A stretch of 24,000 bases of DNA from Flavobacteriaceae bacterium MAR_2010_188 (GCA_900104375.1 LT629302.1:3244480-3268479), one strand, 5' to 3'. Counted from the stretch's first letter, positions 6,148 through 21,822 are shown. The notes: a model not told the origin generated them from the letters alone. Made by a program: numbers and translations.

Positions 6148-6149
6148 CC

Positions 6150-9100
6150 TTAAATTTTCTTTATAATCTTTTTGATTACGGATTCTCCGTTGCTCAACCT
6201 GACTTTTGCGATGTAGGCACTTGGTAACAACCGAGGGAGATTATATGTCTCTGAGGTAGAATTTCCTTTGAGCTGATAAATCGTACGACCAGATAAATCA
6301 GAAATAACTATCGATTCGATTTTGTGTGATTCGTTCGTAAATTGAAGTTGACCATCCTTAAGTTCAATCACTTTTAATTTTGAAAATGATTCATTGACAT
6401 TTTCAATTTTCAATTTGGCTTCCTTGAAGATTATTTTAAAACGGTCGTTAATTTCGCCCTTATCACTGGTAAATCGGTAGGGGCCATTTTTTAAATCATG
6501 CTCAATTAAACGATGTGTATCTTGTAGAATAATATCTAGTTCTTCTAATAAATTACCTTGATATTCCGGAATTGAAATCTCGAAAATGCTATTGGTATCC
6601 ATGGCTAGCGAATAACCTATATCAACACTTTCGTCATTGACCAAGCTACTCGCAGCTTTACCCTGGATCACATATTTAGCATCATCATCCTCTATGATAG
6701 AATATATGGTTCCAAATGATTTTATTGCAAGATTTTTAGGAGCATCATAATATGACCCGTCAAAATCATCGGTAGCTCCCTCGACATATGCGATTAGCAT
6801 TTGGCTAAACAAACCTTCTTCAGAAGTTAAGTTTAGCCATAATTTATTGTGTTCTGTATTGTTTCTCGTTCTAAAGAACTGGTTGTTGTCTGCAATTCCT
6901 TTTGTTCTCATGCTGTTTGCGAATACTACTTTACCCGTCTTTATGCCTTCATTATAATCTAACACGGCTCCTTCATTAGAATAGGAAACGAAAAATCCTT
7001 GCCCTGACGGAATAAATCTATTTGGTTTAATACCATCACCACCCGCAGTTTCACCAGAACCGTTTATGATTGCGTAATCGTCCTGACTAAAGTTTAGCAG
7101 TTCATTGCCGTTGTTGGTAAAAGAAGGTTCTGTCCCTTGGGACCATATATAGATTGCGCCATCCAAGCTTGTATTTTCTTCTATAAACTTATCTACGCTA
7201 ATTGGCGAAGGATAAGGATTTCCTATTAAATTCCAGTTGGTGTCTCTGAGCTCGTTGTCATTTCTATAAATAGGTACATTGATGATTCCATTATTAAAAG
7301 CTCCGGAAAACTCATATAGAAATGTCTGCGCCCCACTACTAGCTGAAAACGATGCAGGACTGTTTGTGGAGGCATAACCCACACCTGGTTGCATTATCAT
7401 TCCACCGGCAAACATCCAATCATTTCCGTTGTCATCCACTCCATCTTGACCTTCAACATATTGGTTATTATTGTTGGTTTCTGCCAAAGAGTCGAGATAA
7501 TTTGCAGCATTAAAATAAAATCGTCTGCTGCTTCCGGCCAATGAAAGTGCATTATCAATGGTTTCATTTCTTACGGGTGAACTCCAATAAGTATATTCAT
7601 ACCATTTATCCATCGGGGAAGTTTCTTTTTCAACAGTAATTTTGCCGGTGCCCAGAACATTTACCAAGGCCAGATTATTAATCTGGATAAAATTACCTGC
7701 AGTTTTTACATTAATTGTAGAAGGTTTAATCGCATCACTGCTATTAACAGTAATATTATTGATGACTTCAACGTAATTTTGATTTGTGATTGTGAGCACT
7801 GCACCATTAAGAATAGAAAGTTTACAAGCGCTTAAATTCCCATTAATCGAAGTATTATAATCTCCTTCAATAATCGCTGTTGAACCAAAATGGGGTGCGC
7901 CGTCACTCCAACTCCAGCCGTTCCATTTGGTTTTATTTACTTTCATTCTTATTGCTGTTGAAGAGCCATAACAATATTCGCTGCTTTCTTGGATTTGGGA
8001 GAAAAACTGATAGCCATTCATGCTACCTAAATCCACAATATTAAGTTCTGCGGTACCTTGACCGGTAAAATTAGGATCGTTTAATGATATTTCAGTCCAG
8101 CCTGCTTCACCAGGCGCATTGTAAAACCATTTATAAGTAATCGGTTGGCCTCCAGCAAAACCTTCTTGACCTTCAACAAAAATGGTATCCACAATCTCAC
8201 AATCTGACGAAGGGCCACTTGGGTTAGTTTCAATAATAGGTGGAATCCCTATTGAAAAATCATGTTTTCCAATGTCGGTATAATCAACAGGATTTAAGGC
8301 GGTCCAGTCACTGTTGTTCCAAGTGGTACTAGGAGCATAAACACCATTTCCTTTTCTCCTGTAAGTGTAATCTTTAGAAGCAATAGTAAAAGGGTCTCCA
8401 GAAATTTCTCCCCAAAGGTCTACCCAGACTCCAGATTTGGTTAAACGAATATGGTCATCATCGCTGATTCCGAAAGACGAACTAAAAAATTGAGCGGTAT
8501 AGCCACCTTCAGGGTCATAGCGATTAGTGCCGCCGACTGCAACTACCACAACTCCTTTGTTGGCTATGGTTCCTGATAAGGAAATAGTGCTGGTAGCAAC
8601 GGGATTTCCGTTATTGTGAATGGCTACTTTATACGGAGCTAGATTAATTGACGCTCCAGTTCCGTTATAGATTTCGATATAAGAATGAGAACCGGTTCCT
8701 TTATCGGTCACCTCACTGATAAAAAGATCTTTTGGTCTAAGACCATTATCTCCTTCGCAAGAGGTAGCTTTTAAATCAATAACCGTAAAACGCTTTGAAC
8801 TTTCGCAACCGTTATTGTCATTGATAATAATATTACCGGTGGTTGCGCCTACCGGAATGGTTACTTCAATTTTTGTGTTAGAAATTACTGTTATACTAGT
8901 ATTGATTCCATTTAAAGATGCGGTTGTTGCTGCGCCATAATTAGAACCTGTTACCGTTACGATAGTACCAATAGGGCCTGTAGAAGGTAAAAAGTTGAGA
9001 TTCGCTGCAGCACAAACTCCAGTTCCTTTTACATAAATGATATAGGGATTCTCGTCCGAATCATCGTTAGCTATAGTAATTGTTGCCGTACGAGTTCCTT

Positions 9101-11051
9101 TGCCATTTGGGGTGAAATCTATTTCGAACATCATAGATTCATTAGGCGCCAGTAGAATCGGTGCGCTATTTGGTAGTATTCTAAACTCTACTGGATTTGA
9201 AGAAATGAGGCTGCTAACATTTAAGTTGGCCGTTCCTTCATTCCGGATATAATAGGTTTTGGGAGAAGTTGTGGTCCCAATTGTAGTTGAAGCAAACAAA
9301 GTGTTGTTACCGGTGTTGGCTGGACTACTGCTGCTTATAGAAGCCATAGTGTTTCTTTCTACATCTATCTCTGGAATAGGAGTATAACCGATGCCTTTCA
9401 ATAGTATTTTACAATTTCCTTCATCCTCATCATTGCTAATAATTGATAGTTCTGATGTTTGCGCCCCTAATGACGTTGGAATAAATCTTAAGCTTATAAT
9501 CTGGGTGTAGCCTGGAGCTAGACTTAACGGAAAATTTGGTGATACTATGCTGAAATCGCCTGTAGTTACTAATGAAGAAATATCTAGGGCGATAGTCCCT
9601 TCATTTTTAATTTCAAAGGACCTATCTGTTGAATAACCCAAAGCTTGTCTATCAAAATTTATGGTAAAATTTCCACAGGCTTGAAGATTGCCGGAACTAT
9701 TCTTAAGCTGAATTTCGGGGTATGAACATGGAGATATAAGTGAATTAATTCCGGGGGAACCGCCATTAGGGACTTCCATCCAGTTAAAAGAGGTCATCGA
9801 GTTTCCTTGATATGCATTTATAACGTGCAATGAAGCGCCATTTCCGTCACCGCCATTTCCGGTAGAATAGGTCACGGAATCTACAATGGTCGAACTGTAG
9901 GATGCCACTATTTCTATTGTCTTCGTCGAATTGGGAAGATTATTCGTGGTGCTTGGGGTGCCATAATCGGGGACAAAACTACAATCAGCATTAAAAGGAG
10001 GAGAGAGATTATCGCCAAGGGCGACGGTGATACATTGTCCATTTAAGATAACACTGTTTAACGGGAAGGTAAATAAGTTAATACCTCCAACCACTATTTT
10101 ATGCAAACTTAGGTTTTGTGTGGTCCCAGAAATGTTGCAGATTTCTATCCATTCGTCGTCCGGACCAGAAGTGTCGTACATAATTTCGGTTAGTACCACA
10201 TTTGCCGGAGGAATGTAAACGCTTCCATTAAGAACCACGGTCTTTGTGGCAGCGGCATTGCTACTAGCGGATAAATTCCCATTATAGGTTCCATAGGTCA
10301 GACCTGCTTTTAGGCGAACGTAAATAGGGGTTGAAGAAACGATGCCGTCTACGGGACTCATAGATAACCCTTCCGTAAATCCAGATGTTTCATTTAGAGA
10401 AATTTCAAATGCTGCGGGACTAGTTAAGGTTATGTCTCCTACTAATTCCTTCCCTGAAATTGAAAAAGACTTGTTGGATGACGGACCGTAGCCTTCTCCA
10501 TAATTAAAATCTGAAATCGAGGTTTTGTCGATGGTAATTGTAGGTGTTGGCGTATACTCTGTCCAGGAAATGTCATCTAAGGAAATCTGCTTGCTGCCTA
10601 TTGACTTAAACTCAATTAAAACATTTCCGGGGACATTTGTAGTAAAGGACCTTTCGAAAATTGTATTCATCCCTGCTAGAGTATAGGAGTCGAATAAAAT
10701 GCCATTTACGTAAATCTCAATTTTGCGGTCCGCCGCCATTCCCCCAGTAAAATAAGAACGGATTTTATAAGAAACTCTACCGACACCTTTGCTGCCGGAA
10801 TTAACGCTTACTTTACTTGTAGTATTAAGGCCTTGACTAAGCCCGATTGATTTACCGACAATATTAAAATCTAAAGTGATGCTCCTTGCTTCTTGATAAT
10901 TCCAGACTAAGCCGTTATCACCGATAAATGAACTACTTTGATAAGTTGAACCAGAAGCGTTTAAATTTGTAAATGATTCGCTACCCTGTCCGAAACTGGA
11001 CATAGCAGAGAATATAAATGCTAATAGAGTGAGGGAAAATCTATTATCCAT
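6150..11051 (-). CDS. Giant (1633 aa) multidomain cell-surface/secreted protein: two lamin-tail domains, two choice-of-anchor-D-like Ig domains, IPT/TIG domain, T9SS type-A C-terminal sorting domain
   Basis: Signal peptide MDNRFSLTLLAFIFSAMSSFGQ. LTD-like segments are VLTEIMYDTSGPDDEWIEICN (about aa 284-412) and LFISEVTDKGTGSHSYIEIYNGTG (about aa 775-905). Choice-of-anchor-D-like segments are FEIKNEGTIALDISS...LSIISNDEDE and YYIRNEGTANLNVSS...ITIANDDSDENPY. IPT/TIG-like segment is PSTGPIGTIVTVTGSNYG. C-terminal CTD is VISDLSGRTIYQLKG...YIAKVRLSNGESVIKKIIKKI. Confidence 0.85.
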   Translation of the reverse strand: MDNRFSLTLLAFIFSAMSSFGQGSESFTNLNASGSTYQSSSFIGDNGLVWNYQEARSITLDFNIVGKSIGLSQGLNTTSKVSVNSGSKGVGRVSYKIRSYFTGGMAADRKIEIYVNGILFDSYTLAGMNTIFERSFTTNVPGNVLIEFKSIGSKQISLDDISWTEYTPTPTITIDKTSISDFNYGEGYGPSSNKSFSISGKELVGDITLTSPAAFEISLNETSGFTEGLSMSPVDGIVSSTPIYVRLKAGLTYGTYNGNLSASSNAAATKTVVLNGSVYIPPANVVLTEIMYDTSGPDDEWIEICNISGTTQNLSLHKIVVGGINLFTFPLNSVILNGQCITVALGDNLSPPFNADCSFVPDYGTPSTTNNLPNSTKTIEIVASYSSTIVDSVTYSTGNGGDGNGASLHVINAYQGNSMTSFNWMEVPNGGSPGINSLISPCSYPEIQLKNSSGNLQACGNFTINFDRQALGYSTDRSFEIKNEGTIALDISSLVTTGDFSIVSPNFPLSLAPGYTQIISLRFIPTSLGAQTSELSIISNDEDEGNCKILLKGIGYTPIPEIDVERNTMASISSSSPANTGNNTLFASTTIGTTTSPKTYYIRNEGTANLNVSSLISSNPVEFRILPNSAPILLAPNESMMFEIDFTPNGKGTRTATITIANDDSDENPYIIYVKGTGVCAAANLNFLPSTGPIGTIVTVTGSNYGAATTASLNGINTSITVISNTKIEVTIPVGATTGNIIINDNNGCESSKRFTVIDLKATSCEGDNGLRPKDLFISEVTDKGTGSHSYIEIYNGTGASINLAPYKVAIHNNGNPVATSTISLSGTIANKGVVVVAVGGTNRYDPEGGYTAQFFSSSFGISDDDHIRLTKSGVWVDLWGEISGDPFTIASKDYTYRRKGNGVYAPSTTWNNSDWTALNPVDYTDIGKHDFSIGIPPIIETNPSGPSSDCEIVDTIFVEGQEGFAGGQPITYKWFYNAPGEAGWTEISLNDPNFTGQGTAELNIVDLGSMNGYQFFSQIQESSEYCYGSSTAIRMKVNKTKWNGWSWSDGAPHFGSTAIIEGDYNTSINGNLSACKLSILNGAVLTITNQNYVEVINNITVNSSDAIKPSTINVKTAGNFIQINNLALVNVLGTGKITVEKETSPMDKWYEYTYWSSPVRNETIDNALSLAGSSRRFYFNAANYLDSLAETNNNNQYVEGQDGVDDNGNDWMFAGGMIMQPGVGYASTNSPASFSASSGAQTFLYEFSGAFNNGIINVPIYRNDNELRDTNWNLIGNPYPSPISVDKFIEENTSLDGAIYIWSQGTEPSFTNNGNELLNFSQDDYAIINGSGETAGGDGIKPNRFIPSGQGFFVSYSNEGAVLDYNEGIKTGKVVFANSMRTKGIADNNQFFRTRNNTEHNKLWLNLTSEEGLFSQMLIAYVEGATDDFDGSYYDAPKNLAIKSFGTIYSIIEDDDAKYVIQGKAASSLVNDESVDIGYSLAMDTNSIFEISIPEYQGNLLEELDIILQDTHRLIEHDLKNGPYRFTSDKGEINDRFKIIFKEAKLKIENVNESFSKLKVIELKDGQLQFTNESHKIESIVISDLSGRTIYQLKGNSTSETYNLPRLLPSAYIAKVRLSNGESVIKKIIKKI

Positions 11052-11632: not shown

Positions 11633-12124
11633 TTAGAGATTAAAACTTGCGCCGATATTTACCGCAAACTGATTATGAATTTTTTCCGCTGGCGTTAAGG
11701 CATCACTATTGTATTTGGCCATAGGAAATAGAGCTTCTGTAAAAATTCCAAAACCTGGTGTAAAGAAGTATCGAGCACCAACGTGCCCTCCGAAATTTTT
11801 CAAACTAAAGCTTAGACCTGGATAAAGATCAAAATTTTCATCGATATTCAATACATTTCCTAAGTGAGCATTAAACCTCCCTCTGACATCCATACGGTCC
11901 CCAAAATCTGCTTCTAAAGAATTATCGATTCCCAGGGCATAGGTACCAACTACTCCCAATGAAATATTTTCGCCAATACCGTAATCGAAACTGACGTTTA
12001 GACCAGTCGCATTGTCTTGAATATTTGCACCAACTTGAAATTTGTTGTCGCCGTTACCAGTGTATGCTTGGGCATGGATTAATGTGGTTGCGAAAATGGA
12101 TAAAATTAAAAGAGAATATTTCAT
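11633..12124 (-). CDS. Small outer-membrane beta-barrel (porin-family) protein
   Basis: Signal peptide MKYSLLILSIFATTLIHAQA. Alternating amphipathic strands follow, rich in G/Y/F, and the terminal residues are GASFNL. The ATG at 12124 is preferred over the TTG at 12151. Confidence 0.7.
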   Translation of the reverse strand: MKYSLLILSIFATTLIHAQAYTGNGDNKFQVGANIQDNATGLNVSFDYGIGENISLGVVGTYALGIDNSLEADFGDRMDVRGRFNAHLGNVLNIDENFDLYPGLSFSLKNFGGHVGARYFFTPGFGIFTEALFPMAKYNSDALTPAEKIHNQFAVNIGASFNL

Positions 12125-12148
12125 TATTTGGGTGTTTTTTAATTTCAA

Positions 12149-12156
12149 CAAAGATA
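12149..12156 (-). promoter_or_regulatory. Candidate -7 promoter box (TAnnTTTG) for the beta-barrel gene
   Basis: The minus strand reads TATCTTTG, with 24 nt between it and the ATG at 12124. It sits in the short spacer after the cupin gene stop (12171). Confidence 0.35.
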
Positions 12157-12170
12157 TTATAAGTTTTTAT

Positions 12171-13208
12171 TTATTGAGCATTATAGAATGCGTCTGTCCT
12201 AAAAATTGCTTGTTCATTTTTCCAATCGATCCATTTTTGGCCTTTTATCCTTCGCATAAAATTGTCAAAATATCTCATGATTGCGATATTATAAATGGCC
12301 TTGGCAAGATTTTTAGGATTTTTGGCGATAGAACGAAGGCTCATCGAAAAGCCTGGCGTTAAATACTTCATATAATGCCAATAACCTTCTGGCATATATA
12401 ACATATCGCCGTGTTTAAGTTCTGTGATAAAGCCATTAGCATTTTTAAGGGCCGGCCACTTTTCGAAATCAGGTTGATTAAAATCTATATCTTCTCTTAC
12501 GATTAAAGAGTGTGGAATTTTATAAAGATGCTTATTCTGTTTTTGATCAAATAAGATGCATTTTTTGATACCTTCAAAATGATAATGAAATATGTTGGCT
12601 AAATCGATATCAAAATGCATAAAGGTATGAGAATCGCGACCACCGAAGAATAGCATTGGCAGACCTTTCATGAATTTAATTCCCAAATCAGGATACTCAA
12701 ACTCATTTTGAAGCTGAGGTACTTCCTTCATAAGATTCCAAAGAAAAATGCGGTATTTAGTTGGTTCTTTTTTAAGAAGATCGATATAAGCGTTCATCTT
12801 CATCTTTGCGTGAGGCTGATTAAAACCATCCTTGTGGCTTACTGGCCTATCATCATAAAGCGGAACTATTTTTTCGCCGGCAATTTCCTTGAAGTAATCA
12901 AAATTCCAGGTGGAGTTGGCTGACCAATTGCTCGAAAGATTTTCCACCACTACTGGCAATTGAGGTTTATAGTAATTTGCTATAAATTCCTCTTTTGTAA
13001 TAGAAGATATACGAGGAATGTCCTTTAGATTCAGCTCCAACAATGATTGATTTTGTGATGGCAAAGTTATTAAATCGTAGAGAATAAGATTTAAAGATCT
13101 GTTAAAAGTAATTCTCCTACTTTCTTTAATCTTAAATCTTTGCGGCTGCCTTTTTTTGTTCGTTTCTTTCAATCTGATGTCCGGGCCTAGACCATTTCGG
13201 TTTTTCAT
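12171..13208 (-). CDS. JmjC/cupin-like (Cupin_8-type) putative Fe(II)/2-oxoglutarate oxygenase; start codon uncertain
   Basis: Facial-triad-like motifs are present: [12 protein letters not shown] (HxD) and [12 protein letters not shown] (distal His), with an intervening IKKCILF lysine. The maximal ORF starts at ATG 13208 and overlaps the bioB 3' end by 77 nt. An in-frame TTG at 13043 ([11 protein letters not shown]) would give a size more typical of the family. Confidence 0.7.
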
Positions 13209-14220
13209 TTTTAGATTGAAATTGGGAATCGGAAGCTTCTACCGTCGCAGGTTGCATTTTTTTGATGAATGGTTTTTGCGGAGTAAGACCCAAAAGACCA
13301 AATAATTTCATGTCTTCTGCAACATCCGGATTTGGAGTTGTCAGTAATTTATCTCCGGCAAAAATAGAATTAGCTCCTGCAAAAAAGCAAAGGGTTTGGC
13401 CTTCTTGGCTCATTTCAGTTCTTCCGGCGCTAAGTCTAACTTGGGTTTCTGGCATAACGATTCGCGTTGTAGCTACCATTCTTACCATGTCCCATATAGA
13501 AACCGGATTCTGATCTTCTAACGGAGTACCTTCAACCGCGACCAAAGAATTAATAGGTACGGATTCTGGTTGTGGATTTAAGGTTGAAAGCGCTACCAAC
13601 ATTCCGGCGCGGTCAGTTTCAGATTCACCCATACCAATAATTCCACCAGAGCAAACGGTGACATTGGTTTTACGAACGTTATCAATGGTATCTAAACGAT
13701 CTTGGTATCCTCGGGTAGAAATTACTTCCTTATAGTATTCTTCAGAAGAATCTAAGTTATGATTATAAGCATACAATCCTGCTTCTGCTAAACGATGTGC
13801 CTGATTTTCGGTAACCATTCCCAAAGTGCAACAGACTTCCATGTCTAATTTATTAATGGTTCTCACCATTTCGAGCACTTGATCAAACTCTTCACCATCC
13901 TTAACATTTCTCCAAGCAGCACCCATACATACCCTTGAGCTTCCAGATGCCTTTGCCCTTAGAGCCTGGGCTTTTACCTGTTGCACGGTCATTAAATCGT
14001 TGCCTTCTACATTGGTATGGTATCGAGCGGCTTGCGGACAATAACCACAATCTTCTGGACAACCGCCTGTCTTTATTGACAGTAAGGTAGAAACTTGGAC
14101 CGTATTTGGGTCGTGATGAAGTCTATGAACGGTAGCCGCGTCATAAAGTAACTCCATCATTGGCTTATTATAGATAGCCAAAATCTCTTCTTTAGTCCAG
14201 TTATGTCTTATATCGCTCAT
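13132..14220 (-). CDS. bioB: Biotin synthase (radical SAM)
   Basis: Radical-SAM motif [10 protein letters not shown]; NHNLDSS; YQDRLDT; GGIIGMGE. 362 aa. Confidence 0.95.
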
Positions 14221-14283
14221 ATATCAAAAATAAGATTTATTGATATTAAATATTAAAGTTGAATTATTTTCTACCAATTGTTT

Positions 14284-15444
14284 TCAACAACTAGGATGTT
14301 TTAGAACAATACTTACCGCGTTTCCACCGAAACCAACAGAGTTAATCATAATCCTTTTGATTTTTTCTGGCTCTTTAGTTGGAAGGTAAGGAACTTCAAA
14401 ATATTCTTGATTTTGAAGCATTAATATTGCCATCTCAACACTTAGAATTCCTGATGCTCCCAAAGTGTGCCCAATTTGCCATTTATTGCAGGTTAATGCC
14501 GGCATTTTATTTTTGAAAACAGTTTCGATGGCATTAAGTTCGGACAAATCACCTTTAATGGTGCCTGGCGTATGGGTGATGATAATATCTATTTCTTCTG
14601 GATGAATGGTTGTTAATGCCATGGTTATCGATTTTTGGAAGCAAATGGCATCGGGTGAAACGGAAACATTATGGGTTAGAGGCTCATTTCCGAATCCAAA
14701 ACCTTCTATGATTGCTAACCTATTTTTCAAAATGCCTTTCTGCAGGCAGGCACTGCCCGCAGCTTCACCTAAAATCATAGTATTTTCTTCTTTATCAAAA
14801 TTTAATGGCTGACAAGGATATTCACTTTGATTTCTCGAATAAATCTTTAAAGCTTGCATCTGGGCAATAGTAAAATCAGTTAATGGCGCTTCGCTACCTC
14901 CCACTAAAAAACTATCGCAGAGTCCAGATTTTATCCAAGCGATTGCATTTAACATGGCGTGTAATGATGTAGAACAGGTGATAGAATGGGAAATAGCTGG
15001 GCCATCCGAAAGCAAATCTTGAGCAACCCAAGACGAAATGTTTCCTAAAGTCGTGGTCGGCGAGGCTAGGGCACTTAGTTTTTTGTCCCGGATGAATTCT
15101 CGATGGAATTTTTCAAAGAGTTGGGTGGCACCACGGGAAGAACCTATATTTATTCCAAAGTTATTTTTCTTAGCCCAATTGGCTTCAGCAGTTGCATTTC
15201 TTGACGCATAAATAGAAAACAAAACGGTGTCGTCTAAGGATTTATACTTTTGGTTAGAAACTTTTAAGTTCTCTATTATCGCCTTGGATTCTTTTGATAA
15301 TTCCGCAACGGCAACTTCAGAATTATTTATGGTCTTAGACGTTATCTTTGGCTGAGAGCGTCTATAACTCTGCAAAACTTCTTCTCTATTAGCACCTAAA
15401 GGAGAGATAGACGAAATACCAACAATTGAAATAGGAAAATCCAA
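14284..15444 (-). CDS. Beta-ketoacyl-ACP synthase I/II-like condensing enzyme embedded in the biotin operon
   Basis: FabB/FabF-type motifs: SITCSTSLHA (Cys157), THTPGTIKGD (His291), NKWQIGHTLGASG (Lys321/His326) and C-terminal NSVGFGGNAVSIVL. At 386 aa it is shorter than E. coli FabF. The start is TTG at 15444, 22 nt after the bioA stop. Confidence 0.8.
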   Translation of the reverse strand: MDFPISIVGISSISPLGANREEVLQSYRRSQPKITSKTINNSEVAVAELSKESKAIIENLKVSNQKYKSLDDTVLFSIYASRNATAEANWAKKNNFGINIGSSRGATQLFEKFHREFIRDKKLSALASPTTTLGNISSWVAQDLLSDGPAISHSITCSTSLHAMLNAIAWIKSGLCDSFLVGGSEAPLTDFTIAQMQALKIYSRNQSEYPCQPLNFDKEENTMILGEAAGSACLQKGILKNRLAIIEGFGFGNEPLTHNVSVSPDAICFQKSITMALTTIHPEEIDIIITHTPGTIKGDLSELNAIETVFKNKMPALTCNKWQIGHTLGASGILSVEMAILMLQNQEYFEVPYLPTKEPEKIKRIMINSVGFGGNAVSIVLKHPSC

Positions 15445-15466
15445 AGGCTTTTAGTTTAGGGTAAAA

Positions 15467-16732
15467 TTATACTATTGAGAGCGCACCTTCAATCGCTCGG
15501 TAGATTTTTTTTAATTGATGCTCCTCAATGATATAGGGAGGATGTATATAAATAGTGTTACCCAACGGCCTCAGATAAATGCCTTGCGACATAAAATAAT
15601 CGAAAAGTTTATTGCGTAGATTTCCATAGCGCTCAGTTTCAACATTTAAATCTAGCGCATAGATTATCCCTTTTTGTCTGGTCGATTTTATTTTTGAATG
15701 ATTTTTTATTTTAGAGTCAAATTCTTGGTGCATTTTAATAATCTTCGAAATGTTTGATTGAATTTCAACAGAAGTCAATAACTCAATACCAGCAATGGCT
15801 GCTGTGCAGGCCAGAGGATTGGCGGAGTAGGTGTGACCATGAAAAAACCCTTTTGATACATCTTCGCTTAAAAAGGCATCGTATATTTTTTGTGAACAGG
15901 CTGTAATTCCCATTGGCAAAAGACCGGCAGTTAAGGCTTTGCTCAAGCACATGATGTCAGGATTGATTCTTAAATGCTGGGATGCGAAATATTTTCCTGT
16001 TTTGCCAAATCCGGTCATGACTTCATCGGCAATGGTGATGATTCCTTTTTCGATGCAAAAATTCAAGATTTGTTCTAAATCATCAGCTTTATGCATTTGC
16101 ATCGCGGCGGCGCCTTGTACTAGAGGTTCGTAGACAAAACAGGCAATGGAATTTTCTTTGGTGAGCTTTTCTAAGGTTTTTAAAATATCTTGAATATTAT
16201 CAGAATCGGGAGTTGGTATGCGTTTTACTTCTAGGAAAAAATCTTCAAAAGGACCGTTGTAGACTGAAAGTCCAGAAACACTCATTGCTCCAAACGTGTC
16301 TCCGTGAAATCCATTTTCGAAGGCTAGAATGACATTTCTTTTTTCATTTTTATTAAAATGAAATTGAAGAGCCATTTTTATCGCGACCTCTACGGTCGTA
16401 GATCCGTTGTCGCTAAAGAAAATCTTTTCCTGATTTTCTGGGAGAATCTTTATAAGTTCTTCCGAAAGTATGATCGCCGGCTTATGGGTGAAACCGCTAA
16501 AGACGATTTGATCTAAATTCTTCATTTGCGCAGCCACGCGATTTGTGATAAAATCGTTGCAATGTCCGTAGACTGAAGTGTACCAAGATGCAATCCCATC
16601 GATATACTCCTTTCCTGCTTCGTCGTAAAGTAAGCAGCCTTTTGCACTAATAATTGGTAAGCTCTCTGGATGTAGCTTATGTTGGGTAAGCGGATGCCAA
16701 AGATGTTTTTTGTCTCGTTGTGATAAGGTCAT
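15467..16732 (-). CDS. bioA: Adenosylmethionine-8-amino-7-oxononanoate aminotransferase
   Basis: N-terminus DKKHLWHPLTQHK; class-III aminotransferase body; PLP-lysine context DIMCLSKALTAG. 421 aa, within the biotin cluster. Confidence 0.92.
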   Translation of the reverse strand: MTLSQRDKKHLWHPLTQHKLHPESLPIISAKGCLLYDEAGKEYIDGIASWYTSVYGHCNDFITNRVAAQMKNLDQIVFSGFTHKPAIILSEELIKILPENQEKIFFSDNGSTTVEVAIKMALQFHFNKNEKRNVILAFENGFHGDTFGAMSVSGLSVYNGPFEDFFLEVKRIPTPDSDNIQDILKTLEKLTKENSIACFVYEPLVQGAAAMQMHKADDLEQILNFCIEKGIITIADEVMTGFGKTGKYFASQHLRINPDIMCLSKALTAGLLPMGITACSQKIYDAFLSEDVSKGFFHGHTYSANPLACTAAIAGIELLTSVEIQSNISKIIKMHQEFDSKIKNHSKIKSTRQKGIIYALDLNVETERYGNLRNKLFDYFMSQGIYLRPLGNTIYIHPPYIIEEHQLKKIYRAIEGALSIV

Positions 16733-16803
16733 AAATTTTAATTTGAAACTTGCTTTTGACAGAGCGTAAACTCAAAGTTTTTTTCTTGTTAATTTCTTGT
16801 GAG

Positions 16804-16868
16804 ACCCTGAATCAAGTTCAGGGTGACGTCCTTAATGCGTTGTCGTCATGCTGAACTTGTTTCAGCAT
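16804..16868. repeat. Pair of related short hairpins sharing a CTGAA-N5-TTCAG core (REP-like, Bacteroidota type)
   Basis: Hairpin 1 is ACCCTGAA (16804-16811) / TTCAGGGT (16817-16824) with loop TCAAG. Hairpin 2 is ATGCTGAA (16848-16855) / TTCAGCAT (16861-16868) with loop CTTGT. They lie directly downstream (minus-strand sense) of the GIY-YIG remnant. Confidence 0.75.
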
Positions 16869-16895
16869 CTCAGCCTTATTTACATTTAAATCCAT

Positions 16896-17165
16896 CTAAT
16901 ACTTCAAGGTTTTTAATGTTGGATTTTTTTCCTTTATAAGAGCAATTTTCCAATAATGCTTCCAATTCTTCAATTGTTTCTCTCTGGCTTGTTTTATAAC
17001 ACTAAATAATTCAAAATAAATAAGATATTTTATGTTGTATTTTTTTTGTGAATTCACTACCACTTCCGTCAAAATGTTCAGTCATCCTTTTACAGAGATT
17101 TGCTGTAACTCCTATGTAAAAGGTTGTCCTAAATTTATTAGTCAATATATAGATATAACTTTCAT
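16896..17165 (-). pseudogene. GIY-YIG nuclease family gene disrupted by two homopolymer frameshifts
   Basis: My own minus-strand translation gives three pieces: ATG-AAA (17165), then in another frame YILTNKFRTTFYIGVTANLCKRMTEHFDGSGSEFTKK, then in the original frame KKYNIKYLIYFELFSVIKQAREKQLKNWKHYWKIALIKEKNPTLKTLKY*. The frame switches fall in an A3 run near 17160-17162 and an A8 run (T8 on the plus strand, 17040-17047). Repairing both gives an 89-aa GIY-YIG protein. Confidence 0.75.
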
Positions 17166-17211
17166 TCAGGGGCTAGTGAATTAACTACATAATAAATATT
17201 TTTTAGGGAAT

Positions 17212-17844
17212 TCAACTTAATATAAAATCATTAAACACATCATCCTCCTTAAATTGCTCGGCATATTCCTTTATGACATTCTGATCAAAATATGGCTCAT
17301 CACTAATTCGACCCAATACCATCACCCCACTCATTTTTGAAATAATTTCTTCAGTACTCTTATTTTCATTTCCTGACCAGACGATAGCAGTATTTAATTT
17401 CTTTTGCTTCAACTTATCTAAAGTTAGTAAAGTGTGATTTATACTTCCCAAATAATGTCTAGACACCACCACCACTTTATAATCAGGTTTTATTAAATCT
17501 AGAATGGTGTTCTCATCATTTAAGGGAACCAGCAATCCACCCGCGCCTTCTATCACCAGATGATTGTTTGTTTTTGGCTCGATGATTTCTTCAAGATTGA
17601 TTTTTCTTCCATCAATCTCTGCAGCTGCATGAGGGCTCATAGGGGTTTGTAATGCGTAACTATTTGGATGAAATTTTGATTCTGAATTCGACACCAGTTT
17701 TTTAATTTTATGGCTATCAGAATTTTCCAAATCCCCTGCTTGGATGGGTTTCCAATAATCGGCTTTTAGCGCTTCAACAATAACGGCAGAAAATATAGTT
17801 TTACCTACATCAGTAGAAATTCCGGTGACAAATATTTTAGACAT
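17212..17844 (-). CDS. bioD: Dethiobiotin synthetase
   Basis: MSKIFVTGISTDVGKT P-loop at the N-terminus; EGAGGLLVP motif. The ATG at 17844 is preferred over the ORF-track start at 17889. ATGTCTAA overlaps the upstream gene's stop. Confidence 0.9.
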   Translation of the reverse strand: MSKIFVTGISTDVGKTIFSAVIVEALKADYWKPIQAGDLENSDSHKIKKLVSNSESKFHPNSYALQTPMSPHAAAEIDGRKINLEEIIEPKTNNHLVIEGAGGLLVPLNDENTILDLIKPDYKVVVVSRHYLGSINHTLLTLDKLKQKKLNTAIVWSGNENKSTEEIISKMSGVMVLGRISDEPYFDQNVIKEYAEQFKEDDVFNDFILS

Positions 17845-18220
17845 TAAAAATCGTATTACAAGCGTTACAGACGTAGCGTTTCTTTTCAAAAAAAGGGAAT
17901 AACATATAAAATATGTTTTTTCTTTCTAACGGAGCGATCAAAATGCGGCTAGAATTGCAGTTGATGCAATGAATTGAATTTCCTTCAGAATCCGTTTCAT
18001 ATTCCCTTATCTGATCATAAATTGCTCTAGCTTTTATGAAATCATTTTTGTGAACCAATAATTTAACCCCGCCAATCGCCTGACTGATCAGCGGGTCCGA
18101 GTCGATGGTCTTTTCGTCCATTAACATGCACTGAATGTCTTCTGACTCGAGCTTAGATTTTAGCATTTGGGCTTCGGTCGAATAATCAAACACATTTAAG
18201 ACTTTATAAATGGGGTTCAT
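17837..18220 (-). CDS. DUF2007-like (putative signal-transducing, GlnB-like fold) domain fused to a C-terminal CxxC...CxxC zinc ribbon
   Basis: The N-terminal ~70 aa (VFDYSTEAQMLKSKLESEDIQCMLMDEK...GGVKLLVHKNDFIKARAIY) resemble DUF2007. The C-terminus has CINCNS...CNACN. ATGA overlaps the bioF stop and there is an 8-nt overlap with the bioD start. Confidence 0.65.
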   Translation of the reverse strand: MNPIYKVLNVFDYSTEAQMLKSKLESEDIQCMLMDEKTIDSDPLISQAIGGVKLLVHKNDFIKARAIYDQIREYETDSEGNSIHCINCNSSRILIAPLERKNIFYMLFPFFEKKRYVCNACNTIFNV

Positions 18221-19356
18221 TTTGATTGTATCAGCTTAGAAAGAGTTTGAAGGACTTTAGTTATTTGGATTTTTTCGTTAAAAGAATGAATGCAAAACCG
18301 AAGACGTTCTTGACCACTTGGTACAGAAGGATAAAGAATCGGCTTCACATTAAAACCTTGTTCCTGAATTTGTTTTGCGACACTTTTTACTTTATCGTTC
18401 CCAGAAATTAGGCAAGAATGAATGGCCGAATCACTTATAATAAATAGATTTTCAAGATTATTTTTGGTTATTTCAAATTTGAAAAATTTAATATTATCAT
18501 GAAGTTTTTCAAGATTTGAAATATCATTTAGTGAATCATAGGAAGCGCTAATTGTCGCAAGCGAATGCGGCGGTAGAGCAGTGGTATAAATAAGCGACCT
18601 TGAAAAATTCACCAGATACTCTTTTAATTTATCCGATCCTAAAACTGCGGCTCCATGTGCTCCAATGGCTTTGCCGAAAGTAATTATCCGCGCAAAAATT
18701 TTATTTTGAAGGTTTAAATCTTGAACTAATCCCACCCCATTTTTTCCGAATACCCCGACCGCATGAGCTTCATCAACTACTAAAAAAATATTTTGTTCAG
18801 CACAAATTTTGGCCATTTCGGTCAGATTTGGGCTATCGCCATCCATTGAAAATACCGATTCCGTAACCACATAAATAGTTTCAACATCTTGAAATCTTTT
18901 CGACTTAAGTTTTAAATCTTCAAGATTATTATGACCAAACTTAAATGACTTTGCCTTGCTAATGGAGATGCCGTCGCGTATGGATGCATGAATAAATTCA
19001 TCGTATAAAATCACATCACCACGTTGAGGTACCGAAGAAAAAAATCCAATGTTGGTATCGTAACCAGAGTTAAAAATCAGGCAGGCTTCGGATTCGTGAA
19101 AATAACATAATTGCTTTTCTACAATGGGGTATAAAGAATGATTTCCGGTCAATAAACGCGAACCCGTGGAGCCATTAAGACGCAGCTCATTTTTTTCTAA
19201 AATTTCTTGGGCCGAATTATATATTGTTTCAGATTTAGAGAATCCCAAATAATCATTGGACGAAAAATCCACTAATGCGTGGGAAGTTCCCAATGATCTA
19301 AACGCATTTTCATTCTTGCGTTTATCTAATTTAGCCTGAAGTGATTTTGGAAACAT
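18217..19356 (-). CDS. bioF: 8-amino-7-oxononanoate synthase
   Basis: Alpha-oxoamine synthase motifs: VDEAHAVGVFG, and FGKAIGAHGAAV carrying the PLP lysine. 379 aa; first gene of the biotin cluster. Confidence 0.9.
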   Translation of the reverse strand: MFPKSLQAKLDKRKNENAFRSLGTSHALVDFSSNDYLGFSKSETIYNSAQEILEKNELRLNGSTGSRLLTGNHSLYPIVEKQLCYFHESEACLIFNSGYDTNIGFFSSVPQRGDVILYDEFIHASIRDGISISKAKSFKFGHNNLEDLKLKSKRFQDVETIYVVTESVFSMDGDSPNLTEMAKICAEQNIFLVVDEAHAVGVFGKNGVGLVQDLNLQNKIFARIITFGKAIGAHGAAVLGSDKLKEYLVNFSRSLIYTTALPPHSLATISASYDSLNDISNLEKLHDNIKFFKFEITKNNLENLFIISDSAIHSCLISGNDKVKSVAKQIQEQGFNVKPILYPSVPSGQERLRFCIHSFNEKIQITKVLQTLSKLIQSK

Positions 19357-19477
19357 CGACTCAAAGATACAAACTGCTCCGCGAAATTACAGGTTCAAAA
19401 AATGTCATAAAATTATAGAAATGGGACAAAGTTAAAAATCGTGATTCTTTGTATATTCGGTGTATAAACACTTTCTA

Positions 19478-21262
19478 ATGAGATACATTTTTTCGGTATT
19501 ATTAATTTTTGCTATTTCCAATACTTCAACCTCACAAACTTCTTACACAATAAGCTTTCCGGCCGCGGTACACCATGAGGCTGAAATCGAAGCGGTTTTT
19601 AAAAACATAAAAAACGATACGGCCACTTTTAAAATGAGCCGTAGTTCACCTGGGCGCTATGCCTTGCACGAGTTTGCCAAAAATGTTTACAGTGTCTCGG
19701 CAACCGATTTAAAGGATAAGCCTTTAACCATCTTTAGGACAGATCCTTATTCTTGGCATGTCACTGGTCATAAGGGTGAGATTAAAGTGAAATACACCCT
19801 GTTTGCTAACCATGCGGACGGCACCTATTCGCAGATTGACGAAACCCACGCTCACCTAAATATGCCGGCAACATTTATGTTTATGGACGAGTTGAAGGAT
19901 TCAAAATATCAATTGAAGATTATGCCGAGGCAAGATTTAAATTGGAAAATCGCTACCCAACTTCAAAAAGAATCCGATACCGATTTTTTAGCGGAAGACC
20001 TTCAATATTTTATGGACAGCCCAATTGAAATTAGCGATTTAAGAATGCGGACTTTCGAAATCAGTGACAATGATAGAACTCAAACCATAGAAGTTGCACT
20101 GCATGACTCTAAAGCTTCTGACTCTGATTTTGAACAATATTCTAAATACGTTGAGGATATCGTTAAACAAGAACAAGCTGTTTTTGGCGAGCTGCCTACT
20201 TATGATTTCGGAAAGTATACCTTTTTAGCGTGTTTTATGCCGCAGAATTCTGGTGATGCCATGGAACATAGAAATTCAACATCTTTATCTTCTACCAGAA
20301 GTTTGGCCGATGGCGGCGTAAAAGGAAATTTAGGAAGCGCGGCCCATGAATTTTTTCATTGCTGGAATGTCGAACGTATTAGACCCCAAGCTTTAGAACC
20401 TTTTGATTTTTCTGAAGCTAACATGAGTGGAGAACTTTGGTTTGCCGAAGGTTTTACTAACTATTTCGATGGTTTAAGTATGGTCAGGGCCGGGGTGATT
20501 ACCCAAGAGGATTTTATACAGGGAATGGGAAGAACTTTCAATTTTGTATGGACCAGCTCCGGGAGAGAATATTTTAATCCAATAGAAATGAGCTATCAGG
20601 CGCCTTTTGTTGATGCGGCCAGGTCTGTGGACGCAACTAATCGCAACAATACTTTTATCTCTTATTATTCTTATGGCGATATGTTAGGATTGGCTCTAGA
20701 CCTCGCACTGAGGAAGGAAGGAAAAGATTTAGATTCGTTTATGCAATTGGTTTGGAACACCTACGGAAAAAAACAGCAACCCTACACGGTTGACGATATT
20801 CATAAGAGCCTATCTAAATTCTCTTCACAGAAATTTTCCGATGATTATTTCAATAACTACATCTATAAAAGTGAAATGCCTGATTTTATGCCTTTGTTCG
20901 AAAATGTTGGTTTAAAATATGAGATTGAAAAAAAACCGGGTTTTGGAGTTTCCGTAAAGGACAACAAGGTTTTAAATAATCCTACTAATGGTTCTACCGC
21001 ATATAAAGCGGGCATTCAGGAAAATGATAAAATCATTAGGTTAAATGAAACCAGTATTTCCAACAGCCAAAATCCAAATACTTTGATATCTAACATGAAG
21101 GTTGGGGATTCTATAAATATTACCTTAGAACGTTATGGAAAATTGATGACTATTGAAACCGAGGTTTTGCCAGAGACCAATTATAAAATCGAACTCATTC
21201 CAGATGAAGGTTTGAATGATGAGCAGAGGAAGAACAAGTTATCATGGTTGGGTAAAAAATAA
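19478..21262 (+). CDS. M61 family (glycyl aminopeptidase-like) metallopeptidase with C-terminal PDZ domain
   Basis: Signal peptide MRYIFSVLLIFAISNTS; zinc motif AAHEFFHCWNVERIRP (HExxH); C-terminal PDZ-like segment (GSTAYKAGIQENDKIIRLNE). The ATG at 19478 is preferred over the GTG at 19460. Confidence 0.85.
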   Translation: MRYIFSVLLIFAISNTSTSQTSYTISFPAAVHHEAEIEAVFKNIKNDTATFKMSRSSPGRYALHEFAKNVYSVSATDLKDKPLTIFRTDPYSWHVTGHKGEIKVKYTLFANHADGTYSQIDETHAHLNMPATFMFMDELKDSKYQLKIMPRQDLNWKIATQLQKESDTDFLAEDLQYFMDSPIEISDLRMRTFEISDNDRTQTIEVALHDSKASDSDFEQYSKYVEDIVKQEQAVFGELPTYDFGKYTFLACFMPQNSGDAMEHRNSTSLSSTRSLADGGVKGNLGSAAHEFFHCWNVERIRPQALEPFDFSEANMSGELWFAEGFTNYFDGLSMVRAGVITQEDFIQGMGRTFNFVWTSSGREYFNPIEMSYQAPFVDAARSVDATNRNNTFISYYSYGDMLGLALDLALRKEGKDLDSFMQLVWNTYGKKQQPYTVDDIHKSLSKFSSQKFSDDYFNNYIYKSEMPDFMPLFENVGLKYEIEKKPGFGVSVKDNKVLNNPTNGSTAYKAGIQENDKIIRLNETSISNSQNPNTLISNMKVGDSINITLERYGKLMTIETEVLPETNYKIELIPDEGLNDEQRKNKLSWLGKK

Positions 21263-21822
21263 TGTCGTCTGTAATTTATAAGCGAGCAGAAACAACTGAA
21301 GAATTAAAACAAATCTTAAATCTTCAAAATCGAAATTTCCCTGATTCGGTTGCTGAGGAAGAAAGAATTTTGGAGGGTTTCGTGACGGTAAGACATAATT
21401 TAGAAATTTTGACCGAGATGAATAAGCGCTGCGCACATATTATCGCAGTGATTGATGAAAGGGTAGTGGCTTATGCACTAAGTATGCATCCAAGCTTTAA
21501 GAACGACATTGAAATACTTAAACCGATGTTTATTCAAATTGAAGACACTGTCGATAAGGATTTAAGCTATATCGCGATGGGTCAGATTTGCATCGATAAG
21601 AATTTTAGAAAACAAGGCATTTTCAAAGGACTTTATAATTTTATGGGGATTGAGCTTCGACCGGAATATGACGCTGTTATTACCGAAGTAGATTCCGAAA
21701 ATCATAGGTCTATGAACGCACATGTTGGAGCTGGATTTAAATGCATCTCAAATTATATGGCAGACGGTCACGACTGGAATTTATTGATAAAATACTGGAA
21801 TATTAACAAGATAAACACCTAA
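21262..21822 (+). CDS. GNAT family N-acetyltransferase
   Basis: Acetyl-CoA-binding motif QICIDKNFRKQGIFKGLY (R-x-x-G-x-G/A type). 186 aa. Its ATG overlaps the M61 stop (TAATG). Confidence 0.75.
   Translation: MSSVIYKRAETTEELKQILNLQNRNFPDSVAEEERILEGFVTVRHNLEILTEMNKRCAHIIAVIDERVVAYALSMHPSFKNDIEILKPMFIQIEDTVDKDLSYIAMGQICIDKNFRKQGIFKGLYNFMGIELRPEYDAVITEVDSENHRSMNAHVGAGFKCISNYMADGHDWNLLIKYWNINKINT

Follow-up and report, generated by a model that had tools for sequence, protein, structure and literature searches.

A FabF-class condensing enzyme in the biotin cluster of marine Flavobacteriaceae as a candidate source of the pimeloyl arm

Introduction

The biotin cluster of Flavobacteriaceae bacterium MAR_2010_188 (GCA_900104375.1, LT629302.1:3244480-3268479) raises the question of where the pimeloyl thioester that is consumed by its BioF comes from. 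The whole stretch of 24,000 nucleotides that was analysed is referred to here as the window, and positions are counted from its first letter. Gene calling and profile searches over the window gave a minus-strand cluster with the order bioF, a DUF2007 gene, bioD, a gap holding the remnant of a GIY-YIG nuclease gene, bioA, a gene for a 3-ketoacyl-acyl carrier protein (ACP) synthase (KAS), bioB and a JmjC cupin gene, which reproduced the gene order, coordinates and junctions given in an earlier note on this DNA. None of BioC, its partner esterase, BioW, BioI, BioZ or the ferritin-like BioE is recognisable in the window, and a MocR/GntR gene was not found there either. Here it is proposed, with somewhat more confidence than doubt, that the KAS is a dedicated biotin enzyme that would build the pimeloyl arm, taking an omega-carboxy primer to 3-oxopimeloyl-ACP without methyl esters.

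Within biotin synthesis, the source of the pimelate moiety is the part that varies and has yet to be charted completely; new solutions have kept emerging, among them BioZ in 2020 and BioE in 2025. Flavobacteriaceae rank as major degraders of algal polysaccharide in the sea, and whether they make or need biotin bears on models of vitamin exchange; an annotation that demands BioC and BioH may rate their biotin pathway as incomplete.

The condensing enzyme and its active site

The KAS gene (14284-15444, minus strand) encodes a KAS I/II-like condensing enzyme of 386 aa and follows bioA after a gap of 22 nt. The protein has both the N- and the C-terminal ketoacyl-synt domains of Pfam (PF00109, 72.6 bits; PF02801, 58.9 bits), each over its gathering score, and it falls under every NCBIfam cut-off, including those for fabF (TIGR03150, 143.4 against 493.75 bits) and KAS I (NF005935, 97.6 against 630 bits). 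Neither ACP_syn_III nor a FabH family matched it in the Pfam and NCBIfam scans. An exhaustive search of 1.84 billion cluster representatives with the protein gave 458 hits at E<=1e-30; scores of 234-466 bits and identities of 36-56% were reached by the best 150, whereas the solved FabF and FabB structures reached only about 60-93 bits. Judged by this difference in scores, the window KAS is a member of a distinct and diverse family.

Conservation was followed in 140 full-length diverse representatives of the family, down to 36% identity. Cys157, His291, Lys321, His326, Phe372, Glu111, Glu185 and Arg104 are invariant (140/140), and Gln195 (139/140) and the motif S-P-x-T-T-L-G-N are nearly so. 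In the alignment to E. coli FabF, Cys157, His291, Lys321, His326 and Phe372 correspond to Cys163, His303, Lys335, His340 and Phe400, respectively, so that the Cys-His-His triad, the active-site Lys and the Phe of the GFGG loop are all present. The acyl pocket is different. Arg104 takes the position of Ile108 at the FabF back gate, both in this alignment and in a phmmer alignment to Listeria FabF, while Met196, Thr132 and Asn135 take those of Phe202, Ile138 and Met141; neither the hydrophobic I108-F202 back gate of FabF nor Gly108 of FabB is kept. In FabF this gate lies at C7-C8 of the bound chain, and an I108F substitution limits the enzyme to C6 primers; position 108 is occupied by Gly in FabB and by Met in the mitochondrial KAS (PMC9006962). 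An invariant cation at the depth of the back gate, amid invariant polar residues, fits what would be expected for a primer whose chain of five to seven carbons ends in a carboxylate.

Linkage of the condensing enzyme to biotin genes

Relatives of the KAS were found in at least 595 species genomes by a scan of one genome per species with a KAS alignment; the best 80 of these and 80 metagenome loci form the set of 160 loci used here. The best 80 cover many genera of Flavobacteriaceae, plus Flavobacterium. Among them, bioA lies 5' of the KAS gene on the same strand in 77, and two of the remaining three are cut by a contig end. Their usual order is bioF-(DUF2007)-bioD-bioA-KAS-bioB-(cupin)-(DUF6646)-RecX. 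Across all 160 loci the KAS gene (160) is accompanied by bioA in 135, bioD in 123, bioF in 111, bioB in 110, the cupin gene in about 70 and the DUF2007 gene in 69.

A profile search with distant representatives, together with the metagenome scan, returned mainly ordinary loci of the Flavobacteriaceae type and a few divergent arrangements. In Flavobacterium loci (L049, L055, L059 and L080; also L107 and L121) the run bioF..bioD-bioA-KAS is kept and bioB is elsewhere or inverted, and the first four of these lack both the cupin and the DUF2007 gene. Locus L104 has the order bioB-bioF-bioD-bioA-KAS followed by lysC/lysA-like genes, L081 has an 8-nt overlap of the KAS gene with bioA, and L122 and L136 have uppP-KAS-bioB with no bioF, bioD or bioA within 8 kb. 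Such rearranged loci are stronger evidence of linkage than the position of the gene inside Flavobacteriaceae.

The most divergent arrangement is that of a distant KAS clade (query P0269) with only 36% identity to the window protein, in which the KAS gene overlaps or abuts a gene for an alpha-oxoamine synthase of about 380 aa on five contigs, with an overlap of 8-11 nt in three, an overlap of 4 nt in one and a gap of 4 nt in one. The pair (at about 6850-9215 in each of the Pfam-annotated loci L162, L163, L165 and L166) is flanked by tyrS/smr and rpmG/secG, with no bioA, bioD or bioB within 8 kb. The synthase scores 314-340 bits with the bioF model TIGR00858, as opposed to 220-235 bits with the next family; its identity to the window BioF is 41%. 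This lineage is uncultured; its metagenome-assembled genomes include GCA_038134595.1, and a relative carries the label 'Pseudomonadota bacterium'. A BioF-type partner in an unrelated genomic setting argues for a specific coupling of the KAS to the consumer of the pimeloyl thioester.

Search for known pimelate genes

The window ORFs (open reading frames) of at least 100 aa include no methyltransferase, alpha/beta-hydrolase, P450, acyl-CoA synthetase, FabH-like or ferritin-like protein, in agreement with the earlier note, which had seen no recognisable pimelate gene in the window; the list of known routes on which that statement rested was incomplete, as BioE and the fatty acid synthase-like cluster of Desulfovibrio were omitted. 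For the other pimelate genes, the search covered the window and about 14 kb around each of the 160 homologous loci. A GNAT-like ORF (21262-21822) was considered as a methyltransferase and rejected on inspection, and motif I of the S-adenosylmethionine methyltransferases was not found in any of the 160 KAS loci. Rare hydrolases near the KAS gene were rejected as BioH, as they score 34-40 bits with the bioH model, whose cut-off is 207. Flotillin/NfeD, a PMT_2 glycosyltransferase, a Coa1-like protein, a secreted proline-iminopeptidase-like hydrolase, and ATP-grasp and SET proteins were likewise examined and rejected as missing pimelate genes. No ORF of at least 50 aa for an ACP, FabG or FabZ was found in 12171-19369, nor were such genes found in the Pfam-annotated relatives L162-L168. 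Separately, L099 has a fragment of a class I methyltransferase 5 kb upstream of its KAS relative.

These results bear on the possibility that the KAS works inside a pathway of the BioC/BioH type, where it would elongate malonyl- and/or glutaryl-ACP methyl ester while the methyltransferase and the esterase are encoded elsewhere. In E. coli the route depends on a long-chain KAS taking methyl-ester primers, and glutaryl-ACP methyl ester, of about C7 length, reaches the back gate (PMC9006962). The linkage to bio genes suits such a role equally well, and because the search for the methyltransferase and esterase covers the window and the surroundings of the loci, both genes could sit elsewhere. However, the 160 clusters hold neither a methyltransferase motif nor a BioH-like esterase, BioC users of a related phylum, for example Balneolaceae, have bioC within the operon (PMC9909488), and an invariant Arg in the pocket would be better for a free carboxylate than for a neutral methyl ester. 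A methyl-ester elongase is therefore, in our judgement, an unlikely identity for this protein.

Proposed pathway and its weighing

In the pathway that we favour, the KAS would load a short omega-carboxy acyl thioester on Cys157, in a pocket remodelled for the free omega-carboxylate. Glutaryl-ACP or glutaryl-CoA would be the likeliest and simplest primer, the alternative being a start from malonyl-ACP with two rounds of elongation. Condensation of the primer with malonyl-ACP would give 3-oxopimeloyl-ACP, which housekeeping FabG, FabZ and FabI could reduce to pimeloyl-ACP for BioF, and neither the methyl-ester disguise of BioC nor a BioH-type esterase would be needed. We infer this substrate, this product and the independence from BioC and BioH from the sequence comparisons given above.

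Several observations weigh against this proposal. The 3.8-Mb MAR_2010_188 genome may encode, outside the window, BioC with an esterase, BioE, BioW or some other route. No dedicated ACP, reductase or dehydratase accompanies the KAS, unlike in Desulfovibrio, and the housekeeping type II system of fatty acid synthesis (FAS II) would need to take omega-carboxy intermediates. The role of Arg104 is read from alignment only, and the AlphaFold model of the KAS, built with 11 aligned sequences, has a mean predicted local distance difference test (pLDDT) score of 51.8, too poor for pocket geometry or fold searches. Furthermore, the biotin clusters of relatives contain unrelated genes: a flotillin and an NfeD-like protein between the KAS gene and bioB in 25-30 loci (for example L016, 11244-13259), a PMT-type (PMT_2) glycosyltransferase, encoded on the opposite strand, that in 20 loci separates bioD from bioA (for example L035, 7149-8627), a Coa1-like membrane protein between bioA and the KAS gene in 35 loci (for example L031, 9474-9905), and occasional secreted hydrolase, ATP-grasp and SET inserts. 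The synteny reaches the non-bio genes for RecX, M61 and GNAT, so that common descent within one family accounts for much of the linkage, and in at least three loci the KAS gene has no bio neighbour on its contig (L082, 7995-9146; L099, about 5269-6423; L148, 6877-8094), these family members being 35-50% identical to the window KAS. Because of the unrelated inserts and the synteny that extends past the bio genes, position within Flavobacteriaceae is only moderate evidence, and position alone is weak.

The same observations, namely a cluster that takes unrelated inserts, a synteny running well past the bio genes and three loci with a KAS gene and no bio neighbours, are what would be expected if the KAS were an unrelated passenger, such as a lipid, pigment or polyketide ketosynthase, held in place by synteny while pimelate comes from an unlinked route. 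Such a passenger would hardly be predicted to pair with bioF in a lineage with a wholly different neighbourhood, to stay with bioB where bioF, bioD and bioA are absent (L122 and L136) or with bioA where bioB has moved, or to lie on the same strand as its window neighbours at gaps of just 22 and 63 nt, and an Arg in the pocket would be unexpected in an enzyme for hydrophobic chains. We consider it improbable that the gene is there by synteny alone.

The idea of the earlier note that the KAS supplies the pimeloyl thioester thus gained the bio linkage, the bioF-KAS pair, the catalytic residues and Arg104 in its favour and remains unproven, as the search for BioC, BioH and BioE is limited to the window and the surroundings of the loci. 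If the dedicated role of the KAS is true, a one-gene, methyl-ester-free and oxygen-independent route would fill a gap in the metabolic reconstruction of hundreds of species, the enzyme would be a simple part for engineered biotin production, and a single charged residue would re-tune the FabF pocket for a dicarboxylate.

Cupin and DUF2007 genes

The gene following bioB (12171-13208, minus strand) encodes a JmjC/Cupin_8 Fe(II)/2-oxoglutarate oxygenase of the JMJD5/FIH-like type (PF13621, 99.6 bits). In the PDB, its best relatives are two protein hydroxylases, JMJD5 with 68 bits and FIH with 56 bits, and the HxD...H metal ligands are kept, with MHFD and WHY aligned to LHQD and WHY of JMJD5. The cupin gene is 3' of bioB in 60 of the 80 genome loci. 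It is not in clusters of the Flavobacterium type, in L081 and L104 or in the bioF-KAS lineage, and in L117 it lies 7 kb off on the other strand. It is probably a member of a syntenic block bioB-cupin-DUF6646-RecX, with an improbable role in the pathway.

In the window the cupin ORF overlaps bioB by 77 nt; in most relatives the frame opens only near window residue 55-59. The overlap is probably the result of an over-extended ORF, with the conserved core starting from near 13040. The basic N-terminal 55 residues (13044-13208) are conserved as protein only in a subset of genera (L016, L034, L035, L060, L074 and L078), Zobellia-, Maribacter- and Muriicola-like loci being among those that keep them, and in the other relatives the frame opens right before the conserved core, without an ATG. 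One metagenome contig (L096, 4514-6300) has two tandem cupin paralogues after bioB.

An oxygenase with an intact HxD...H site directly after bioB, taken together with the oxidative C7-C8 cleavage proven in BioI and BioE (PMC12704756), makes it conceivable that the cupin, with or without the DUF2007 protein, yields pimelate by cleaving a long acyl chain, the KAS being accessory. The nearest solved relatives, however, hydroxylate proteins, the gene accompanies only about 70 of the 160 KAS genes and is missing from the Flavobacterium-type, L081/L104-type and bioF-KAS lineages, and its displaced copy in L117 and its place in the wider block with DUF6646 and RecX also argue against this role. An oxidative origin of pimelate from the cupin is thus very hard to sustain.

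The DUF2007 gene (17837-18220, minus strand; PF09413, 27.2 bits) encodes a protein of 127 aa with a C-terminal CxxC...CxxC zinc-ribbon-like motif; it overlaps the bioF stop by 4 nt and bioD by 8 nt, in translational coupling with both. It was found in 69 of the 160 KAS loci and in none of the Flavobacterium-type or distant bioF-KAS clusters. The protein has no relative in the PDB, and its single-sequence model (pLDDT 41.8) is unusable. The gene is likely co-expressed with bioF and bioD, and a catalytic part in pimelate synthesis is not indicated. By their distribution, the cupin and DUF2007 genes appear as lineage-restricted, dispensable neighbours. The suggestion that both contribute to the pimelate route was not borne out, each being in about 70 of the 160 KAS loci and both missing from the Flavobacterium-type clusters and the distant lineage. 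In the earlier note the cupin gene overlaps or abuts bioB; the overlap belongs to an ORF that is probably over-long, and past the cupin gene the same-strand run goes on into a DUF6646 gene (ORF at 11633-12151, minus strand).

Other genes of the cluster and window

The remaining biotin genes are all on the minus strand. The bioF gene (18217-19356) encodes 8-amino-7-oxononanoate synthase, the consumer of the pimeloyl thioester (Pfam Aminotran_1_2); its TIGR00858 score of 321 bits is lower than the curated cut-off of 426 and yet about 85 bits over the next family, and the gene opens the cluster in 111 of the 160 loci. The bioD gene for dethiobiotin synthetase (17212-17844; TIGR00347, 124.5 bits, cut-off 83; PF13500) has an ORF that opens at TTG 17889, and its homologues, which start with MK(L/F)F(I/V)TG, favour ATG 17844; this start gives the 8-nt overlap with the DUF2007 gene, in line with the earlier note. 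The bioA gene (15467-16732) encodes adenosylmethionine-8-amino-7-oxononanoate transaminase (TIGR00508, 528 bits, cut-off 405) and lies 5' of the KAS gene in 135 of the 160 loci. The bioB gene for biotin synthase (13132-14220; TIGR00433, 398 bits, cut-off 225; Radical_SAM and BATS domains) is separated from the KAS gene by 63 nt. The C-terminus of BioB (13132-13270) has an extension of about 45 residues past BATS, with a motif in common with the locus of a Flavobacterium metagenome-assembled genome (L059, 15436-15570). A scan of the cluster for promoters and terminators gave no signal over shuffled controls, and no regulatory palindrome was seen by eye 5' of bioF.

The gap of 479 nt between bioD and bioA (16733-17211, minus strand) contains the GIY-YIG remnant as an ORF of 58 aa (16896-17072). 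By tblastn it matches the C-terminus of intact genes in the identical bioD-bioA spot of L003, L008, L011, L042 and L065; these intact genes, in five related genomes, encode 92 aa, and the L011 copy has 60.8 bits with PF01541. The intact genes at the same junction suggest that the window gap holds a decayed mobile nuclease gene. Within the remnant region (16780-17072), two short hairpin-forming inverted repeats, tgctgaaacaagttcagca and accctgaacttgattcagggt, come after the remnant. In the wider set of Flavobacteriaceae bio clusters, unrelated inserts recur at fixed junctions, namely KAS/bioB, bioD/bioA and bioA/KAS. A SET-domain protein of 198 aa (PF00856, 47 bits) is inserted between bioA and the KAS gene in five Flavobacterium-type loci (for example L049, 9326-9922, and L080, 9367-9969). 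In L082 the KAS gene follows an MgtE-like gene and precedes nrdF/nrdE.

The other window ORFs of at least 100 aa encode glutamate dehydrogenase, PorZ, RecO, a TonB-dependent receptor, a surface protein of 1633 aa, RecX, DUF6646, an M61 peptidase, a weak GNAT and a NagB/PIG-L fusion. The 1633-aa protein (6150-11051, minus strand) is a secreted protein encoded downstream of the cluster, beside the TonB-dependent receptor and the PorZ-like gene; its C-terminus, judged only by eye, resembles a type IX secretion sorting domain, and the protein is unrelated to the biotin finding.

Comparison with known systems

As in E. coli FabF and FabB, the window KAS has the same two Pfam domains and aligned catalytic residues. 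Unlike E. coli FabF, to which it is 23% identical, it is about 27 residues shorter and has Arg and Met in place of I108 and F202, flanked by an invariant Gln and Thr.

In Weeksellaceae, the sister family to Flavobacteriaceae, pimeloyl-ACP/CoA comes from BioE, a ferritin-like diiron oxygenase under BioL regulation, and homologues of it have been reported in some Flavobacteriaceae (PMC12704756, PMC12915131); the supplements of these papers contain nothing on Flavobacteriaceae. The window resembles the BioE/BioL system in having an extra gene in a cluster of bioF, bioD, bioB and bioA only, in Flavobacteriales, without BioC, BioH, BioI, BioW or BioZ. The oxidative C7-C8 cleavage by BioE is unrelated in chemistry and fold to a condensing enzyme; the window has no ferritin-like gene, and a BioE may sit elsewhere in the genome.

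In alpha-proteobacteria, BioZ is a 3-ketoacyl-ACP synthase of the KAS III type, which joins glutaryl-CoA and malonyl-ACP, after which the housekeeping FAS II finishes pimeloyl-ACP (PMC7645780, PMC8024396, PMC12625853); the glutaryl carboxylate is held by Ser84 and Ser287 (PMC12625853). The window cluster is like that of BioZ in having a single condensing enzyme in a bio operon without BioC and BioH in that operon. The enzymes themselves differ, BioZ being FabH-like with Cys-His-Asn and a CoA primer, whereas the window KAS is FabB/F-like with Cys-His-His and without meaningful similarity to KAS III; the carboxylate anchor, Ser84 and Ser287 in BioZ, would be the Arg at the position of FabF Ile108 in the window KAS.

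A bio cluster of the Desulfovibrio type was reportedly predicted as early as 2004 by Rodionov et al. In Desulfovibrio vulgaris, the cluster DVU2558-DVU2565 has a FabF-like protein (DVU2563), an ACP, a FabG-like reductase and FabZ-like proteins, all needed for growth without biotin, and the organism lacks bioC and bioH; less hydrophobic active sites were predicted for the biotin-cluster enzymes, and clusters of this type were reported only for anaerobes belonging to a few phyla (PMC10102598). The window cluster shares with it a KAS of the FabF class embedded among bioF, bioA, bioD and bioB, here between bioA and bioB. It differs in that the window KAS stands alone, without ACP, FabG or FabZ, and in that its hosts are aerobic marine Flavobacteriaceae; DVU2563 was compared by its published description.

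No description of the window KAS was found in the literature searched, in which subscription-only papers were not covered. The note's term 'uncharacterised' for the route has to be narrowed, given the FabF-like precedent in Desulfovibrio (PMC10102598) and BioE in Weeksellaceae (PMC12704756). Pimelate synthesis that is initiated by a condensing enzyme and free of methyl esters is already a known idea, genetically supported only in the multi-gene form of Desulfovibrio, and what would be new here is that such a route is run by a FabF-class enzyme that stands alone and is widespread among marine Flavobacteriaceae. That such a KAS by itself, with an Arg in its pocket and with no methyl-ester disguise, dedicated ACP or oxygenase, represents a further pimelate route, and the main one for hundreds of species of marine Flavobacteriaceae and for at least one uncultured lineage unrelated to them, is a more tentative claim, which we place a little short of an even chance. 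If true, the Desulfovibrio cluster and BioZ would join the enzyme described here in a general class of condensing-enzyme-initiated pimelate synthesis.

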